From an uncultured Spirochaetota bacterium (GTDB lineage: Bacteria > Spirochaetota > Brevinematia > Brevinematales > JAOACQ01), in NCBI GenBank assembly GCA_963835575.1, contig CAWIGG010000006.1, forward strand, positions 64,001 to 128,000: DNA of 64,000 nucleotides, written 5' to 3'. Shown one piece after another: positions 7,863-62,540 of the stretch (positions are counted from its first letter, which is position 1; each line of letters opens with the position of its first letter). Below the pieces are notes generated by a model that did not search any database, had not been told where the DNA came from, and was given only the letters and a program-made list of their open reading frames with translations. The translations under genes were made by a program, and so were the position numbers.

Positions 7863-8010
7863 ACCGGGGGAAAAAAGGAAAGATTTAGGGGGAACCGTTC
7901 TGATAATGAAAAAGGTATTGAAATTAGCATAAATATGATGTATTATTTTTAAGGTTTAATGATGATTTTATGCGGGGGAGTTTATGTTTATTAGAAATAT
8001 GGTTCTTATA

Positions 8011-9406
8011 GAGTTATAATAGAAAGTTGTGTATAGGAATAAATATTATAAAAAAGATGGCGTACCCTCTATAATTTATTTACGACAATAAACAAAAGGA
8101 GGAATACGCCATATGCCGAAGCACAACGAAGATTTTAAGCTCTTACAGGCTTTTAATCAAGATGAAACAGTAGAATTTTTATGTCTTGAAGAATTGGCAA
8201 GGATCGGGGCCAGGGAAATAATCAAGAAGGCTCTGGAAGATGAAATTAATGGGTTTCTTCAGGAGAGAGAGCATTTAACTATCGAAGACGGGAGAAAGGC
8301 AATAGTAAGAAATGGGTATCATAAAGCCCGTCAGATTCTCATTGGTGGAGGGGCTATTGATGTATGTATTCCGAGAACAAGGAACCGACTCGGAGGCGAC
8401 AATTTTCAAAGCCTAATAGTACCGCCGTATATGAGAAAAAGCCTGAGAATTGAGGAAGCCATTCCATTGTTGTATCTCTATGGAGTCTCAGAGATGGATA
8501 TGGAGAATGCCTTGAGAGGATTGCTTGGTGAAGAAGCGAAAGGATTATCAGCCTCAAGTATAAGCAGAATGAAACAAGGATGGGGTAAAGAATATGATGA
8601 GTGGCGGACATCCGATTTAAGCGATAAAAAGTATTGCTATATATGGGTTGACGGCATTTACTTCAATGTACAGGGCAGCGAAGACCGTTTATGCACTCTT
8701 GTAATGATCGGAGCCAATGAGAATGGTGAAAAGGAGATTATTCTTGTTGAAGAAGGTTACAGAGAGAATTCCGAGACTTGGTTAGGGATATTAAGAAACC
8801 TAAAAGAAAAAGGTTTGAAAGGTCCTATTCTTTTTATCGGAGACGGAAGCCTTGGATTCTGGAAAGCAGCCAAAGAAGTATATCCTGAATCCAGATGGCA
8901 GAGATGCTGGGTTCATAAGATAAAGAACATTCTAAACAAGCTGCCCAAAGTATTACAGTCAAAGGCAAAAGAGATGCTTCATGAGATATGCAATGCTCCT
9001 GATAAGGATAATGCTATCAAAGCTTTTGAATTATTCCAGGCGGTTTTTAATCCTAAATATCCAGCAGCTGTCGAATGTTTAGAAAAGGATTGGGAGCTTA
9101 TGATCGAATTTTATAACTGTCCGGCGGAACATTGGGTACATATCCGTACGACAAACGTAATAGAATCTACCTTCTCTACAGTTCGATTAAGAACTAAAAA
9201 GATGAGAGGCTGCGGAACCAGGGAAACGATTCTAATAATGGTCTATAAATTACTGGATAAGGCATCCAGGCGATGGAGAAAATTAAGAGGTTATGAAAAG
9301 ATTAGCCTTGTATTGGAAGGCGCTGTTTTTGAGAACGGAGAGCTTGTAAAAAAGGCAGCATAAAAAAATGAGAGGGTATGTCATACACAACATTTGACAA
9401 AAACTC
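8011..9406 (+). mobile_element. IS256-family insertion sequence
   Basis: Imperfect IRs GAGTT-N10-GTTGTGTAT; 9-bp target duplication GTTCTTATA at 8002-8010 and 9407-9415. Confidence 0.93.
8113..9363 (+). CDS. IS256-family (Mutator-type) transposase
   Basis: RNGYH, YIWVDGIY, IGDGSLGFW, QRCWVHK, RTTNVIES. Confidence 0.96.
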   Translation: MPKHNEDFKLLQAFNQDETVEFLCLEELARIGAREIIKKALEDEINGFLQEREHLTIEDGRKAIVRNGYHKARQILIGGGAIDVCIPRTRNRLGGDNFQSLIVPPYMRKSLRIEEAIPLLYLYGVSEMDMENALRGLLGEEAKGLSASSISRMKQGWGKEYDEWRTSDLSDKKYCYIWVDGIYFNVQGSEDRLCTLVMIGANENGEKEIILVEEGYRENSETWLGILRNLKEKGLKGPILFIGDGSLGFWKAAKEVYPESRWQRCWVHKIKNILNKLPKVLQSKAKEMLHEICNAPDKDNAIKAFELFQAVFNPKYPAAVECLEKDWELMIEFYNCPAEHWVHIRTTNVIESTFSTVRLRTKKMRGCGTRETILIMVYKLLDKASRRWRKLRGYEKISLVLEGAVFENGELVKKAA

Positions 9407-32037: not shown

Positions 32038-32072
32038 TACATTATCTCCTTTTTTATGGGAATAATCGTATT

Positions 32073-32280
32073 AAGGGCAGTTCCAAAAACTAAAAATTTA
32101 TCAGATATTTCCACAACAGGTTTTGGAACTGCCCCGATTAAAAAATTCCTTGTGAATGCAAATGGCGCTACCGTATAGAGTTCGCTGGTCGGCTTTCTTT
32201 TCAGACAGCGAACTCGAGCGGTAGCATGAACTCATACAATAGCGGCAGTTCTAAATATTTGAGTTTTTAGAACTGCCCTT
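32073..32280. mobile_element. MITE-like composite of GGCAGTTC hairpins
   Basis: AAGGGCAGTTCCAAAAACT ... AGTTTTTAGAACTGCCCTT, with hairpin units at both ends and an internal stem. Confidence 0.65.
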
Positions 32281-33218: not shown

Positions 33219-34863
33219 CCCGGATTATTCACCTGAAAAAAAGTATAAAAAAAGCCGCGTAACTTTACTCTTTATGATATAATTAATTGCGACCTAAAAA
33301 TACCCCAAAGAGGAGATACGCGGTGAAAACAGTATGTCATAAACAAGAAGAAAAATCAAGCGGTTTTGCCTTTTTAGGCAAGACTATTGAGATGGACTGG
33401 AACGGCGGCGACATATCCACTGACGGCGGGCTGTTTCTGGTATCCGGGCTCTTAAAAAAGACCGGAATTATCAATAGAATATCCGGTTGTATTGAGGATT
33501 GCAGGGACCAGGACCGGATAATTCATGAAATGAGTGAATTGATCGGACAACGGGTCAGCCAAATGATCATGGGGTATGAAGACACCAACGACGCGGGAGT
33601 ATTACGGTATGACCCGATGTTTAAATTCGCGGCAGGGCGTTTACCTGAAAGCGGAGATACCCTGTCCAGCCAGCCGACGCTGTCCAGGCTTGAGAACAGC
33701 ATAAACCTTCGGGATATAACGAAGCTTGATTTCTGTATGACGGACTGGTACATTGACAGCTTGATAGAGCGTAAAGCGGAAAGTGTTGTTCTTGACATAG
33801 ACGGCACGGATGATCCGACGCATGGTAAACAGGAAGGAAGCCTGTTCAACGGTTTTTATGAACAAACGATGTACTCACCGCTGATTGTTTGTGACGGAGA
33901 TACCGGAGACCTTGCGGCGATTAAACTGCGGCAGGGAAACGCGGGTCCGGCAAAGGACGCGCTTGCTATGATCAGGAGAATTGTTTTGGCAATAAGGAGG
34001 CGACAACCGGAGATCCGGATAATCCTGCGAGGTGACGCCGGATTTGAAAACCCGAAGATATACGAATATTGCGAACAAAATGATCTCCATTATATTCTGG
34101 GAATAAAGGGTTACCGGAGATTGGAGAAGAGGACAAGAAAGCTATCCCGCAGGGCAAAGACATATTTTCAAAAAAGCGGGAAAGAAAAGACGCTTCATAC
34201 GAATTTCAAATACCGTGCACAAAGCTGGGAAAAAGAACGAATGATTATCGCCCGGATACGCTGCAATGAATTGGGACAGGACACCCGTTATCTGATAACC
34301 AATTGGAAATTTTCAAAGGCAAGGTATGCATACAGATTCTATGCGAAGCGTGGAGATATGGAAAACCGGATCAAGGAACTGAAAAAGGATATGAATCTTG
34401 ACCGTTTGAGCTGCCATCGATATATGGCAAATTATTTCCGGCTGATTCTTGCGGGTTTTGCCTATCAATGCATGCAGCGCTTAAGGAAGGGATTGAAAGG
34501 TACAGAATATGAGAAAGCGCAAGCCGACACTATACGGTTAAAAATTCTGAAAGTTGCTGTACAGGTAAAAGAAACAGTCCGGAGAGTATGGCTGCATTTT
34601 TGCTCAAGTTTCACTGAAAAAGCGGTATTTCAAAGGCTCTCGGACAGCTTTGCGTAATGAAAGCCTTTCTGGATGTTTTTGACTCCGCTTAAAGAAGGGG
34701 GAAACTGCGCCCTTGTAACTGCAAAAAACAGATTTTTGAAAAGTTAGAAAGGATTGGACGGAAAAACGGAAGGTTAACTGACAAATTTATGCGGCCGCTT
34801 GAACAGCCGGGCAGTTTTTTATAGAAAATACACCCTCTGTGGGGGTGAGATGAATAATGCGGG
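33219..34863 (+). mobile_element. IS1380-family insertion sequence
   Basis: IRs CCCGGATTATTCACCT / AGATGAATAATGCGGG; short (G)ATA flank duplication, exact boundary ambiguous. Confidence 0.9.
33323..34657 (+). CDS. IS1380-family transposase
   Basis: STDGGL, GYEDTND, SQPTLSRLEN, LDIDGT, RGDAGF, YAKRGDMENRIKE; GTG start after AGGAG. Confidence 0.96.
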   Translation: MKTVCHKQEEKSSGFAFLGKTIEMDWNGGDISTDGGLFLVSGLLKKTGIINRISGCIEDCRDQDRIIHEMSELIGQRVSQMIMGYEDTNDAGVLRYDPMFKFAAGRLPESGDTLSSQPTLSRLENSINLRDITKLDFCMTDWYIDSLIERKAESVVLDIDGTDDPTHGKQEGSLFNGFYEQTMYSPLIVCDGDTGDLAAIKLRQGNAGPAKDALAMIRRIVLAIRRRQPEIRIILRGDAGFENPKIYEYCEQNDLHYILGIKGYRRLEKRTRKLSRRAKTYFQKSGKEKTLHTNFKYRAQSWEKERMIIARIRCNELGQDTRYLITNWKFSKARYAYRFYAKRGDMENRIKELKKDMNLDRLSCHRYMANYFRLILAGFAYQCMQRLRKGLKGTEYEKAQADTIRLKILKVAVQVKETVRRVWLHFCSSFTEKAVFQRLSDSFA

Positions 34864-35026: not shown

Positions 35027-35945
35027 TCAATCCAGGTCTTTTTTATTCACCTCAAAGATCAATGTCTTTTCCGCGATCTGCTTGACGGTTTTTCCCACGC
35101 AGCCGCGGGGGATCAGCCAGCAGACAGCCCTTTCGCCTTTAAAATACTTCATCGCCGAAGTCAGGGCTTTTTTAAGCGAATAAGGTTTGGTCGAGACAAT
35201 ATTGGTCATGATCATCAGCCAGTTGACGGAGTAGTGGCTGATGTTTGAGCCCTGCTTTAAAAGCTGCGTGACGGAAGGGCCGGACGTCTTCTTTTTCGCG
35301 TGGCCGAAATCAGGCGCTTCCGCTTTCCCGACAGGGTTGAGCTTTACCGCCCTGCAGAAATCGGAGGATGCCCACTCTGCGACAGCTTTAGAAGAAGCGA
35401 TTTTGGAATAATTACAGCCGTATATATCGATGATCAACTCAAAAGCGGACGAAAAACCCTCTTCCACTGGAAGCTTGAAATCTTTTGAAAAGACTTTTGA
35501 GACTTCTGTCATTTTAGGGAGCAGAACAGTGCCGGCGGGCAGAAGCTTTTTATTGTCCTTAGCAAGACAGGCTTCATATATAAAGCTTTTCTTGCGGATC
35601 TCCCTGACATCTGAAAACGACCCGCGGGGAACATGCCAGCAAATGCCGTTCATGGCCCCGTAATAAGACAGTGTATAGGAAACGGCGTCTTCAACCGGAA
35701 GATAGGCGCATGTAAAACAGTTCGCGCATCCTGTCGCTCCATACTGCCTGTAATTGATGGCGCTAGTCTCTATATACTGAACGAGCGTATCGCCCTCGCC
35801 GAATTCCCGGTTTGAGACCATGGGCTCGCCGTAGGCGATCATATTGATGGCCTCGCATGTTTCTCTGCTCCATCTCGCTATTCTGGAGACGGAAGGGATT
35901 TTTTTGCTGCCGAGCGCGATGTCCATGACGGCTTCCTCGCCATAT

Positions 35946-35953
<8 letters not shown>
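35027..35953 (-). CDS. Tandem S-adenosylmethionine decarboxylase-like (SpeD-fold) domains, probably the C-terminal part of a SpeE fusion
   Basis: Domain 1 QYIETSAI...FTC; domain 2 ELIIDIYGC...GPSVTQLL..SNISH; removing one G at 35954-35955 joins it to speE. Confidence 0.7.
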
Positions 35954-36818
<865 letters not shown>

Positions 36819-37136
36819 TTTATTTTCCTTTTCAAAGCCTTTCCAGCCGGTTTAAACAAAAAACCCGGTTTAAAAGGCCGTATTAAACGGCTTGATGAAA
36901 ATGAGATAATTCATTTACTCATCATCAAAAAAGCCGGACATAATTTTATTATAATAAGCGGAGAATGTCAAGAAGGGGGAATTGAAGGGTAAATTGATAT
37001 TGTGAATAAAATTTCATTTTTTCTTTTTGGAGATGGATCAGAAGGATATATAAAAAATAAATTTGAAAATATTTTCACAGTTAATTAAAATAAATATAAA
37101 TGATTTATCTATGATCAATTAAAAAGGAGGGAATTT

Positions 37137-51051: not shown

Positions 51052-52752
51052 CAGACTGTGTGAAAAAGGCGGTGTAAGACAATAAAGGCGGAGAAAAATC
51101 CTCAAATTTATTTTAATAAGGTATAATATGTAATCAAATTTGAGGTGTGTAAGATGAACCATATAACAGGAGAGCCAAGAGACCAGATAGTACTTTACGC
51201 GGAAACTATTGATGGTTTGATAGAAGAGAAGAACCCTGTAAGAATTATAGACGCATATGTGAGCAGACTAAACATCAGGAGGTTGGGATTCAAAATTAAA
51301 GAGGCGAAAAAAGGGCGTCCATCCTACACAGCGGATGTATTGTTGAAAATATATATTTACGGATATTTGAACAAAGTCAGGACCACGAGGAAATTAGAAA
51401 ACGAATGTAAAAGGAATACGGAACTGATATGGCTGACCTGCCGCTTAGCGCCTGATTTTAAGACCATAGCGGATTTCAGAAGGGATAATATTAAGGGCAT
51501 AAAAAACATTTTCAAAGAGTTTTTGAAAGTATGCCGCAAATTAGAACTGCTGACATTTAAATTAACAGCGACAGATGGAACGAAAATAAGTGGGCAAAAC
51601 AGTCTGGGTAATATTTATAGGCGGGAAAGCATTGAAGGAGTTGAGAAAAAGATTAATGAAAAAATAGACAAATATCTTTTGGAATTGGATAAAAATGATA
51701 AATCGGAAGAAAACGAGTTTGAGTTTTTATCCAGCAACATTGAAAAAAAGCTGGACAGCCTCAAGACAAGAAAAGAAAAAGTAGAAGCGATAAAAAAAAT
51801 GTTTGAGGCCGATCCGGAACTTGAAATCGTTTACGGGAATGATCCCGACGGCAGAATTGGGAAAGATAAAGGGAAAACGGATGTTTTGTACAACGCGCAG
51901 ATAGCAGTGGACGAAAAGAATAAATTGATTGTCGCGGTGGATGTAACCAATGAAAGTAATGATGTTCATCAAGCGGGAAATATGGTTAATAAAGTTGAAG
52001 AAATAAAGAAAGAACTTGAAGCCGAACCGGGATTAAAAACCATACATGTCCTGGATGCCGGATATTATTGCGAAAGTGAGATATTACCGCTTACAGACGG
52101 GGGTCATGAAATCTATATTCCAAGCCCGCGCGATGAAAAAGAAAAAAAGTCCAGGTACAAAGAGCAGCAGAAAGAAAGTATCCCGGCAAAAGGATATCTG
52201 GCAGAAGATTTCAAGATTGATAAAGAGAAGAACCAGTTGATTTGTCCGCAAGGATTACGATTAAATAATCAAAGTGTATATCAGGATAAAAACACGGGGA
52301 TTACTGTAGCGGAATTCAAGTGCAGGAACGAGAATTGTGAGAAGAAGCATTTATGCACAAAAAGCAAAGAAGGCAGGACGGTAAAGTTATCGGTGCGAAA
52401 GGAAGATATGGATAAATTCGATGAGAAGGTCCGAAGTGAATTGGGGCAAAAGATTGTTGCAATCAGAAAAGAGTTGGCAGAACATCCATTTGGAACAATA
52501 AAAGGAAATTTTGGTTATAATAATTTCTTGCTGAAGGGGATTGATAAAGTAAAAAGCGAGTTTAATTTCACGGCATTTATCTATAATTTTAAAAGAGTTC
52601 TGAATATTGCTGGTTTTGATAAGTTATTAGCCGCAATATAGTCTGAATTTCAATGATTATCAGTAATTTTTTATTCAGGCTCTTCTTTAAAGTAAGCAGG
52701 AACCTTTAGATGCCTGATCTTATAAATGTATTCTCTTTTTTCACACAGTCTG
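51052..52752 (+). mobile_element. IS1182-family insertion sequence
   Basis: IRs CAGACTGTGTGAAAAA / TTTTTCACACAGTCTG; AGA duplication at 51049-51051 and 52753-52755. Confidence 0.92.
51154..52641 (+). CDS. IS1182-family transposase
   Basis: GRPSY, LLKIYIYGY, PDFKTIADFR, DGTKI, YNAQ, DAGY, EHPFGTIK. Confidence 0.96.
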   Translation: MNHITGEPRDQIVLYAETIDGLIEEKNPVRIIDAYVSRLNIRRLGFKIKEAKKGRPSYTADVLLKIYIYGYLNKVRTTRKLENECKRNTELIWLTCRLAPDFKTIADFRRDNIKGIKNIFKEFLKVCRKLELLTFKLTATDGTKISGQNSLGNIYRRESIEGVEKKINEKIDKYLLELDKNDKSEENEFEFLSSNIEKKLDSLKTRKEKVEAIKKMFEADPELEIVYGNDPDGRIGKDKGKTDVLYNAQIAVDEKNKLIVAVDVTNESNDVHQAGNMVNKVEEIKKELEAEPGLKTIHVLDAGYYCESEILPLTDGGHEIYIPSPRDEKEKKSRYKEQQKESIPAKGYLAEDFKIDKEKNQLICPQGLRLNNQSVYQDKNTGITVAEFKCRNENCEKKHLCTKSKEGRTVKLSVRKEDMDKFDEKVRSELGQKIVAIRKELAEHPFGTIKGNFGYNNFLLKGIDKVKSEFNFTAFIYNFKRVLNIAGFDKLLAAI

Positions 52753-61020: not shown

Positions 61021-62540
61021 GTAACTATCCAGCCACTAAAAAATAGTCACATGAAATATTTGCATTGAGCATGAAACCATGCTATTCTATAGCATGAATG
61101 AAGATAGAAGAGAAAAAGACTGTGCGGCCTGCTTAAAACGATTTGAAGGCATCATTGCTGATTTACAAAACCAGATAAAGGAGCAGGGTTTAATCATTCA
61201 AAGACAAGCGGAAAAGATTAAGAAATTGGAAGAACAGCTTAATAAGGACAGCCATAACAGCAATAAACCGCCGTCTTCCGATAATCCATTCCAAAATACA
61301 GTAAAGAATTTACGGAAAAAGAGCGGTAAAAAACAAGGCGGCCAGTTTGGACATAAGGGAAATACTCTGAAGAAAGTAGAAAGCCCTGATAAGATCATAG
61401 AACATCAGGTTGAAAAATGTTCCTGTTGTGGAATTGATTTAAGTTCCGAATCAGTTAAGCGGACGGAAAGAAGGCAGGTGTTCGATATACCTCCGATAAA
61501 AGTGGAAGTTACCGAACATCGCTCGGAAGTAAAAGATTGTCCGCATTGCGGTGCGAGAGTAACGGCGGAGTTTCCGGAAGGCATAACCAATAAGGCACAG
61601 TATGGAAAAAACATTAAAGCGCATCTGGTCTATATGAAAACATATGGGTTGATACCCTATGAAAGGCTTTCGGAATACGCCGAATGTTTATTGGGAGTGC
61701 CGCTCAGCAAGGCAACGATTGAAGGATTTATCCGGGAGACCTACAATAAATTAGAAGAGTATGAACAGAAAGTCATAGAACTGATACTAAAAGAAGTGGT
61801 TCTTCACTGTGATGAAACCGGTATTCGGATAAAAGGGTTATTAAAATGGCTCCATGTTGCCTCGAATGAACGTTTTACCTATTATTTTTCTCATGACAAA
61901 CGCGGCACAGAGGCGATGCGTGCGATGGACATTCTCACAAGATTTACCGGTATTATTATCCACGATGGATGGAAAAGTTATCTGGAATTCTTATGCCGTC
62001 ATGGATTGTGTAATGTACACCATTTGAGAGAGCTAATCTGGATACATGAGGAAATGGGTCAGGAATGGGCTAAGGAGATGGGTAATCTTCTTATAAGGAT
62101 TAAGAATGATAAAGAGGCAAGTTTTCCAATACCGGCGGAAAGGATTATAGAATATGATACGGAATATGACCGGATCATCGCGAAAGGATTTGCTGTAAAT
62201 CCAACGCCTGAAAAGCCGGAAGGACTTGTTAAACGCGGCAGAAAAAAGCGGGGCAAGGTTTTATGCCTATTAGACCGATTAAGAAAATATAAAGAATCTG
62301 TCCTTTTATTTATGCGGGAAAAAGATGTTCCATTCAGCAACAATTTGGCGGAACGGGATATCAGAATGATAAAAGTCCAGCAGAAAATATCAGGTACATT
62401 CAGAAGCTGGAATGGAGCGGCTGCCTTTTGCAGAATCAGGGGTTATATATCTACAGTAAAAAAGATGGGCGTCAGTGTTTATCAAGCCCTTATTGACGCG
62501 TTGAACGGCTCCGCTATTAAATATGCGGCTGGATAGTTAC
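61021..62540 (+). mobile_element. IS66-family (single-ORF, ISBst12-like) insertion sequence
   Basis: Perfect 14-bp IR GTAACTATCCAGCC; 8-bp TSD TAATATTC at 61013-61020 and 62541-62548. Confidence 0.95.
61079..62536 (+). CDS. IS66-family transposase (start possibly 61094)
   Basis: Leucine zipper, NSNKPPSSD, GGQFGH.G, zinc finger, DETG, HDG, C.VH..REL, NNLAERDIR. Confidence 0.96.
   Translation: MLFYSMNEDRREKDCAACLKRFEGIIADLQNQIKEQGLIIQRQAEKIKKLEEQLNKDSHNSNKPPSSDNPFQNTVKNLRKKSGKKQGGQFGHKGNTLKKVESPDKIIEHQVEKCSCCGIDLSSESVKRTERRQVFDIPPIKVEVTEHRSEVKDCPHCGARVTAEFPEGITNKAQYGKNIKAHLVYMKTYGLIPYERLSEYAECLLGVPLSKATIEGFIRETYNKLEEYEQKVIELILKEVVLHCDETGIRIKGLLKWLHVASNERFTYYFSHDKRGTEAMRAMDILTRFTGIIIHDGWKSYLEFLCRHGLCNVHHLRELIWIHEEMGQEWAKEMGNLLIRIKNDKEASFPIPAERIIEYDTEYDRIIAKGFAVNPTPEKPEGLVKRGRKKRGKVLCLLDRLRKYKESVLLFMREKDVPFSNNLAERDIRMIKVQQKISGTFRSWNGAAAFCRIRGYISTVKKMGVSVYQALIDALNGSAIKYAAG

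Follow-up and report, generated by a model that had tools for sequence, protein, structure and literature searches.

A tandem SpeDC-type module fused to bacterial spermidine synthase: a candidate ornithine decarboxylase with the split catalytic residues of class 2 AdoMet decarboxylase

Class 1b AdoMet decarboxylase (AdoMetDC, SpeD) is a homodimer with two active sites, each made of the Ser and Cys of one chain and the Ser and His of the other. T. maritima SpeD requires S63, H68 and C83 (PMC10407285), and its S55 is described as analogous to human S229, which serves processing together with H243 (PMC3975893). The sandwich that the class 2 enzyme of eukaryotes builds from one chain is formed in bacteria by two half-enzymes, and in the older model of class 2 origin one gene was duplicated and fused by way of a presumed intermediate carrying a C-terminal extension (Volkov et al. 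2016; PMC5201418). As described in the available excerpts of Li et al. 2023 (PMC10407285), SpeDC is a pyruvoyl-dependent L-ornithine decarboxylase derived from class 1b AdoMetDC, and SpeD-SpeDC fusions, some with a degraded second domain, were proposed as a model for class 2. The SpeDC clade is reported to include an arginine decarboxylase, and one phage enzyme takes both Arg and Orn (PMC10407285, PMC9992855). [quoted passage not shown] In the excerpts of Li et al. 2023 (PMC10407285), SpeE-SpeDC fusions, duplication within one gene and a reciprocal division of catalytic residues go unmentioned, and no published description of the tandem, SpeE-fused family reported here was found in a literature search that covered subscription journals thinly.

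The window, a 64,000-nucleotide stretch of DNA from an uncultured Spirochaetota bacterium, encodes a decarboxylase module of tandem SpeDC-type repeats at 35027..35953; all gene features given below are on the minus strand. The two motifs quoted in a preliminary description of this DNA lie inside that one open frame. The frame lacks a proper start at 35953 and continues the upstream SpeE gene past a one-base frameshift; taken alone, the module can be called as 299 aa, starting at Met 35926, or as 319 aa, starting at TTG 35986. It forms the C-terminal half of a ~600-aa SpeE fusion, and the reading of the module as a stand-alone protein is not supported. The N-terminal SpeE (aminopropyltransferase) half, at 35946..36818, has the domains PF17284 and PF01564 and the GGGD and DxxD motifs, matches NF002010 at 288 bits (cut-off 260) and falls just below the cut-off of TIGR00417 (243.7 against 249.55). 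A sigma-70-like promoter candidate, a consensus match only, lies at 36943..36971, ~125 nt upstream of the SpeE start. It has 11/12 consensus matches and a 17-nt spacer, and is the best of five such sites (3.2 +/- 1.5 in shuffled sequence).

The fusion is the general form of the family. A total of 136 long homologs were found, and the 120 that were listed, to which residue counts below refer as full-length homologs, are 580-600 aa long, contain both SpeE Pfam domains and read through the junction in one frame without exception. They are 48-87% identical to the window module. At the level of genomes, SpeE and both repeats share one frame in 53/54 loci; the exception, L069, has internal frameshifts. 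Another 29 homologs are shorter and mostly fragments from short contigs; two of these, P0008 and P0012, begin at the equivalent of the window copy's Met (35926), and given these starts a stand-alone form of the module may exist. The nearest named records belong to Brevinematales/Spirochaetota (64-72%). Most others are from Ca. Aminicenantes/Acidobacteriota and Chrysiogenales, and a few are titled Clostridia/Eubacteriales or Patescibacteria. Source records name the proteins only spermidine synthase or polyamine aminopropyltransferase. The dcSAM-binding motif of the SpeE half reads GGGDCG instead of GGGDGG in 50 of the 120 homologs. Across the family there is no conserved gene neighbourhood, and polyamine genes lie near the fusion at two loci only. 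At L063:4098-8952, from a Patescibacteria record, the SpeE-tandem fusion is clustered with a SpeD-aminopropyltransferase fusion, an ATP-grasp protein and a third aminopropyltransferase; the L018 neighbourhood contains a carboxynorspermidine decarboxylase-like gene. Such a gene, present in some Brevinematales carriers (L122, L123, L018), represents a second route from putrescine to spermidine.

The module consists of two repeats of one domain. The halves match each other by BLASTP with an E value of 4e-9 and 22% identity over 131 aa (21% in a separate comparison), and a SpeDC-type profile based on 26 single-domain relatives detects two domains in every full-length homolog. The tandem of SpeD-like domains proposed in the preliminary description is therefore borne out, although the two PF02675 matches it anticipated reduced to one weak match, of 26.2 bits, in repeat 2. 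Searches of the module against NCBIfam, TIGR03330 included, gave no match.

Each repeat has kept a different part of the catalytic apparatus. Counting Met 35926 as residue 1, repeat 1 (the pyruvoyl half, 35564..35944) retains YGE, IxM, Q50, E53-T54-S55 and F71-T72-C73, and has lost both the PDFGH..KT loop and the His. S55 (35762..35764), the predicted self-cleavage and pyruvoyl serine, and C73 of the FTC motif (35708..35710), the predicted catalytic cysteine, which aligns with the invariant Cys of SpeD and SpeDC, are present in 120/120 homologs; any His within residues 56-66 occurs in one. The place of the His in single-domain enzymes, five residues past S55, is taken by an equally invariant R60 (35747..35749), in a register that is inexact owing to a two-residue deletion nearby. 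The repeat 1 core is followed by a helix-strand extension (PRG ... IY, 35564..35629), also present in the single-domain protein P0153, and by a linker (35450..35563) of 51-62 residues, as measured from PRG to the next EL motif in the 120 homologs.

Repeat 2 (the partner half, 35039..35449) retains ELxxDxYxC, PDFGH..K.T, S218, Q221, H231, S233 and W236, has lost the pyruvoyl Ser and the Cys, and likewise ends in a helix-strand extension (35039..35110). Its PDFGHxKKKT loop (35285..35314), invariant in repeat 2 and absent from repeat 1, is likely the substrate-pocket loop. The GxS serine S218 (35273..35275) and H231 (35234..35236), by motif the counterparts of T. maritima S55/human S229 and of T. 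maritima H68/human H243, do not vary among the 120 homologs, nor does G226 (35249..35251), the Gly that replaces the pyruvoyl Ser. Repeat 1 has Thr at the S218-equivalent place in 113/120. The place of the lost catalytic Cys, T246 in the window copy (35189..35191), is occupied by R, Q, N, S, T, G, E, W, K, Y or A and never by C, and any Cys within residues 241-250 is found in one homolog of 120. A full Ser/His/Cys set is thus present only across both repeats. This is the division of residues that the preliminary description had read from the letters, a first domain with the pyruvoyl Ser and Cys and no His, and a second with the GxS Ser and His and neither of the others, and it holds throughout the family. 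The same description noted an Asn in place of the ribose-binding Glu; N235 (35222..35224), present in 120/120, aligns with the place of this Glu in AdoMetDC, four residues after the His. The doubt over substrate expressed there was justified. The motifs characteristic of true SpeD, ESH and WPE, are missing from the module, WPE from both repeats.

The predicted structure agrees with a single-chain pseudo-dimer. AlphaFold2 with 121 sequences (pLDDT 94.7, pTM 0.93) gave two like repeats, each followed by its extension and packed against each other as in human AdoMetDC. The SpeD fold was recovered, and human and Thermotoga AdoMetDC, the comparisons named in the preliminary description, were both matched. 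Foldseek placed T. maritima SpeD first (TM 0.84 on target) and class 2 enzymes next. By VIA-align the best match over the whole length was the human proenzyme 1jl0 (Z 16.3, rmsd 3.5, 229 residues aligned), with 1msv at Z 15.9, rmsd 3.3 and 225 aligned; identity in these human class 2 matches is 8-9%. T. maritima SpeD (1TLU/1TMI/1VR7; PF02675, TIGR03330) matched at Z 13.4 and rmsd 2.1 A over 116 residues of repeat 2. Class 1b matches stop at model residues 279-283, whereas the human match extends to 296-297 (human 328-329). In the processed human alpha-chains, model residue 56 onward aligns with human residue 69 onward, so that S55 falls on human S68; the equivalences C73/C82, S218/S229 and H231/H243 were drawn by motif through T. 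maritima and not from distances in the model. The invariant split and the match to the human proenzyme together uphold the suggestion of a single-chain pseudo-dimer with complementary residue loss and a class 2-like layout. A two-copy complex prediction of the module scored 0.01, which is silent either way on dimerisation. A PDB sequence search with the module had no match, the family profile matched through its SpeE half alone, and a SpeDC-type profile reached only T. maritima and Aquifex SpeD, so that no solved SpeDC was found by sequence. The ESM Atlas gave no usable match to the module.

The ancestry of the repeats lies with SpeDC rather than SpeD, in disagreement with the preliminary description, which had taken both halves for the SAM-decarboxylase type. 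The distant relatives found by phmmer are small proteins with a QxIETS..GHF..YIxIFSC pattern, not SpeD, and Fig. S5 of Li et al. 2023, as excerpted (PMC10407285), has this QxIETS-type pattern in assayed ornithine decarboxylase domains. The halves score 38-93 bits on a free SpeDC-type profile and 0.5-15.5 on a class 1b SpeD profile, the latter a narrow one of 15 rows; the SpeDC-type reference rows were chosen by similarity to the query and assigned by motif likeness to the assayed domains. In an IQ-TREE phylogeny of 79 domains and 124 columns (LG+G4, no mixture model, bootstrap not fully settled), which sampled 13 of the 120+ family members and 7/13 SpeD rows and left out class 2 sequences, each repeat forms a clade (100/100). 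Both repeats together with P0153, P0197 and P0199 form a clade (100/99) on the SpeDC-type side, which is separated from true SpeD at 100/99. P0156, P0184, P0190 and P0191 were left out as fragments or chance matches. A 42-row topology test rejected a grouping of repeat 1 with true SpeD (p 0.028) but did not reject a single clade of the two repeats (p 0.23). The clades and topology tests indicate an internal duplication in the SpeE-SpeDC lineage and not a SpeD-SpeDC fusion; on this tree and profile evidence both repeats are of SpeDC (pyruvoyl ornithine decarboxylase) descent. Among the SpeDC diagnostic residues, whose positions were inferred from paper text, Gln (Q50, Q221) and Thr (T54) are kept in the composite. 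The diagnostic Phe is replaced by Tyr in most homologs (Tyr/Phe 114/6), and the diagnostic Tyr is lost, as in several single-domain SpeE fusions.

Living relatives resemble the presumed precursor. Among the distant relatives are 14 SpeE fusions with one such domain (P0153, P0154, P0157, P0159, P0160, P0162, P0170, P0173, P0175, P0197 and P0199-P0202), about 420-470 aa long apart from P0157, a 308-aa fragment. No literature description of these single-domain SpeE-SpeDC fusions was found, and P0175 looks by its tree position like a separate fusion event. P0153, which already has the extension, is 34-45% identical to each repeat, at 34% and 41% in one comparison, indicating a lineage-specific duplication; the tree puts P0153 and P0197 closer to repeat 1 and not basal to both repeats. 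The 14 single-domain fusions share 48 conserved columns; as scored in 27 family members, 11 of these survive in repeat 1 alone, 14 in repeat 2 alone, six in both and four in neither, and 13 are mixed. To give the module, a SpeE-SpeDC fusion would have duplicated its one SpeDC domain internally, in an event separate from that in eukaryotes. The family presents same-gene duplication and reciprocal loss in the SpeD fold in bacteria, with the polarity of the human enzyme, and since single-domain precursors are still alive, each evolutionary step is open to expression and comparison.

Compared with the described systems, the module is class 2-like in build and SpeDC-like in descent, and stands outside both class 2 and the published SpeD-SpeDC fusions. 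With SpeDC it shares the QxIETS cleavage motif, the FG loop, IxM-x-x-[FY]G and the His and Cys motifs, but it has two copies per chain with reciprocal loss, placed behind SpeE and each bearing the extension. With class 2 AdoMetDC (1MSV/1JL0, PF01536) it shares the single-chain alpha-beta-beta-alpha pseudo-dimer, an extension on each half, the pyruvoyl Ser and Cys in the first half, the Ser and His in the second, and one cleavage Ser. It differs from class 2 in low identity, in the lack of a PF01536 match at E up to 1, in N235, in an extension that is helix-strand and not helix-strand-strand, in its fusion to SpeE and in a likely substrate of ornithine rather than SAM. SpeD-SpeDC fusions (Desulfotignum, Ca. 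Omnitrophica and the degraded form of Victivallis vadensis, in which only the first domain cleaves) also place two SpeD-fold domains in one bacterial chain. As they are described, these fusions join two different genes, with a first domain that is a complete SpeD (Ser, His, Cys) and a second that is either complete or stripped of everything (PMC10407285). In the module, by contrast, both halves derive from one SpeDC-type domain, neither is complete alone, and the N-terminal repeat has no His, ESH or WPE. SpeD-SpeE fusions and animal spermine synthase likewise join a SpeD-fold domain to an aminopropyltransferase, but there the SpeD-like domain is N-terminal; here SpeE comes first and is followed by two repeats of SpeDC type.

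The genomes that carry the fusion appear to need a source of putrescine. A total of 44 genomes were searched, 12 from the taxonomic family of the window's genome and 32 to which 32 of the 54 loci led; 40 are carriers (eight and 32, respectively). Since many are kin and many assemblies incomplete, the counts describe a pattern and are not a statistic. In the window's taxonomic family, the eight carriers lack SpeA and AguA (each 0/8) and seven have class 1a SpeD, which in the window's own genome scores 458 bits on TIGR03331. The four non-carriers, all without the fusion, have SpeA and AguA (each 4/4) and no SpeD (0/4). SpeA and AguA were each found in none of the 40 carriers. Other potential sources are sparse: an AAT-fold decarboxylase in 2/40 (G061, G066), a ureohydrolase in 6/40, unclassified PLP decarboxylases in G041, G042 and G068 (20/35 PF02784 matches were classed by NCBIfam), and no agmatine-using enzyme in 34/40. 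No pyruvoyl arginine decarboxylase of the PF01862 fold was found in the window's own genome, and none exceeded the cut-off in five carriers. The own genome encodes both ArgJ and ornithine carbamoyltransferase; searches of three non-Brevinematales carriers (G054, G059, G060) found no ArgJ. Apart from these few cases the carriers, incomplete genomes included, lack SpeA/SpeC and the agmatine route, which is the genome setting by which Li et al. recognise SpeDC, according to the excerpts (PMC10407285).

Based on these results, the module is probably a single-chain, one-site, class 2-like ornithine decarboxylase that feeds putrescine to its own SpeE, a reading to which we assign a probability of about 0.65. 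A single self-cleavage at T54-S55 would place the pyruvoyl group on S55; S218 and H231 of repeat 2 would complete the site, with C73 as proton donor. The cut would leave SpeE and the first strands (~38-39 kDa) bound to a ~27-28 kDa pyruvoyl chain. The module would convert L-ornithine to putrescine and may channel it to the fused SpeE, which would make spermidine with decarboxylated SAM supplied by a separate AdoMetDC. That the tethering of a class 2-type ornithine decarboxylase to spermidine synthase makes one chain a two-step machine passing putrescine on to spermidine is put at slightly better than even odds. If true, polyamine metabolism would gain a bifunctional SpeE-ornithine decarboxylase, and the putrescine gap in Aminicenantes and Brevinematales genomes would be filled.

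The strongest alternative, and an unlikely one, is that the one-site pseudo-dimer acts on another basic amino acid, arginine, lysine or 2,4-diaminobutyrate, leading to N1-aminopropylagmatine, aminopropylcadaverine or norspermidine. In its favour are the changes at two of the four diagnostic positions of SpeDC, the invariant PDFGHxKKKT loop and R60, both peculiar to the subfamily, and the substrate switches described within the clade (PMC10407285, PMC9992855). However, most carriers are without an agmatine-using enzyme, the fusion takes the place of the SpeA and AguA route in the window's taxonomic family, and no lysine activity is reported for the homologs assayed by Li et al. in the excerpts available (PMC10407285).

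That the module is an AdoMetDC or a dual AdoMet/ornithine enzyme, supplying decarboxylated SAM to the fused SpeE, is improbable. Its build and top structural match are those of human AdoMetDC, and SpeD-SpeE fusions are described as common (PMC11107197). Class 1b SpeD was found in only 13 of the 32 carriers outside the window's taxonomic family, and three models detected no class 1 SpeD in the other 19. All 19, however, encode a 407-aa protein that is a candidate for a divergent class 2-like AdoMetDC (L184:664-1884, plus strand, and homologs L185-L251 in Aminicenantes-related genomes), so that 39/40 carriers have a separate candidate; only G006 has none. The SpeDC-type ancestry and the missing WPE motif also argue against AdoMetDC activity, which would moreover leave most carriers with no putrescine source.

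The 407-aa protein barely exceeds the cut-off for PF01536 (E 4e-5), its nearest Atlas cluster is PF01536 (score 0.90), and it has conserved IEES, NTCG, PxGYT and HVT motifs, which suggest AdoMetDC activity and possibly a deep bacterial class 2 enzyme. A PF01536 search found it in 5/5 genomes first tested. Its distribution is complementary to class 1 SpeD: it occurs in the 19/19 carriers mentioned (one copy partial, one frameshifted), in 0/25 of the remaining genomes and in 31/201 genomes of the Aminicenantes-related class. Among 14 further genomes chosen by this protein, ten have the tandem module and none class 1b SpeD. Its single-sequence fold had a pLDDT of 38, a PDB search gave chance matches only, and a profile comparison with SpeDC was not significant (probability 3%).

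That the site is not composite at all is, if anything, less likely than AdoMetDC activity. Repeat 1 would then be self-sufficient and repeat 2 a scaffold or allosteric polyamine sensor, with R60 in the role of the His, or repeat 1 pairing with repeat 1 of another chain. R60 is indeed invariant, the T. maritima S55A mutant is reported still to process (PMC3975893), and published fusions with a dead second domain act via the first (PMC10407285). Yet repeat 2 is the better conserved of the two and holds, all invariant, exactly what repeat 1 has lost, and the repeats are packed together in the model. The degraded V. vadensis domain differs in that, as described, Ser, His and Cys were lost together (PMC10407285).

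A purely oligomeric or regulatory domain of SpeE has a precedent in the SpeD-like domain of animal spermine synthase (PMC12803844, as excerpted), which is also the best structural match outside AdoMetDC (Z 7.1-7.3). This is highly improbable given one full catalytic set invariant in 120 homologs as divergent as 48-87% identity to the window module, and a pathway gap that is filled only if the module is active. Least probable of all is that the duplication is shared with the eukaryotic class 2 enzyme, for which one could cite the whole-length match including the C-terminal extension, and the extensions borne by both halves, a feature shared with the intermediate presumed by Volkov et al. 2016 (PMC5201418), but against which stand the 8-9% identity, the lack of a PF01536 match and the closeness of each half to the living single-domain P0153.

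Finally, the frame of the window copy is broken by an extra base (GG pair, 35954..35955) at the junction of SpeE and decarboxylase, relative to two intact paralogs in the same genome (C2:1625755-1627554 and C5:264918-266717; P0031, 600 aa) that are identical to each other; the frameshift creates the TAG at which the window SpeE half ends. This half is 89% identical to residues 1-289 of P0031. The window copy and the paralogs are 87% identical in DNA. With dN/dS at 0.11 in the SpeE half and 0.13 in the module, purifying selection acts on both parts of the window copy, and the break is recent or an assembly error. IS copies in the same assembly differ by 7 gap openings per about 82 kb, which makes an assembly error plausible without proving it, and none of three public DNA runs checked spans the junction. 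An assembly error is the likelier explanation, and a recent real break the less likely though still quite possible one. Programmed frameshifting was ruled out, as homologs and both paralogs cross the junction in a single frame. A strain-duplicate contig was also ruled out, as the gene alone matches C2 and C5 and its flanks do not. At the last codons, the paralogs are set apart from the window copy by a shift of one base within a run of A. The paralogs lie within a duplicated segment of 6.3 kb and 97.8% identity (G000:C2:1622135-1628445 and C5:261299-267608), and G006 likewise carries a pair of copies, of which one contains an internal TGA. Insertion sequences are present in the window at 33287-34657, 8010-9406, 51052-52752 and 61021-62540. 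One, with a DDE_Tnp_1_4 transposase, lies 370 bp downstream of the window gene, and the other three have 7-32 near-identical genome copies each. An intergenic repeat of ~210 bp at 32070-32280 has >30 copies genome-wide at 85-99% identity.
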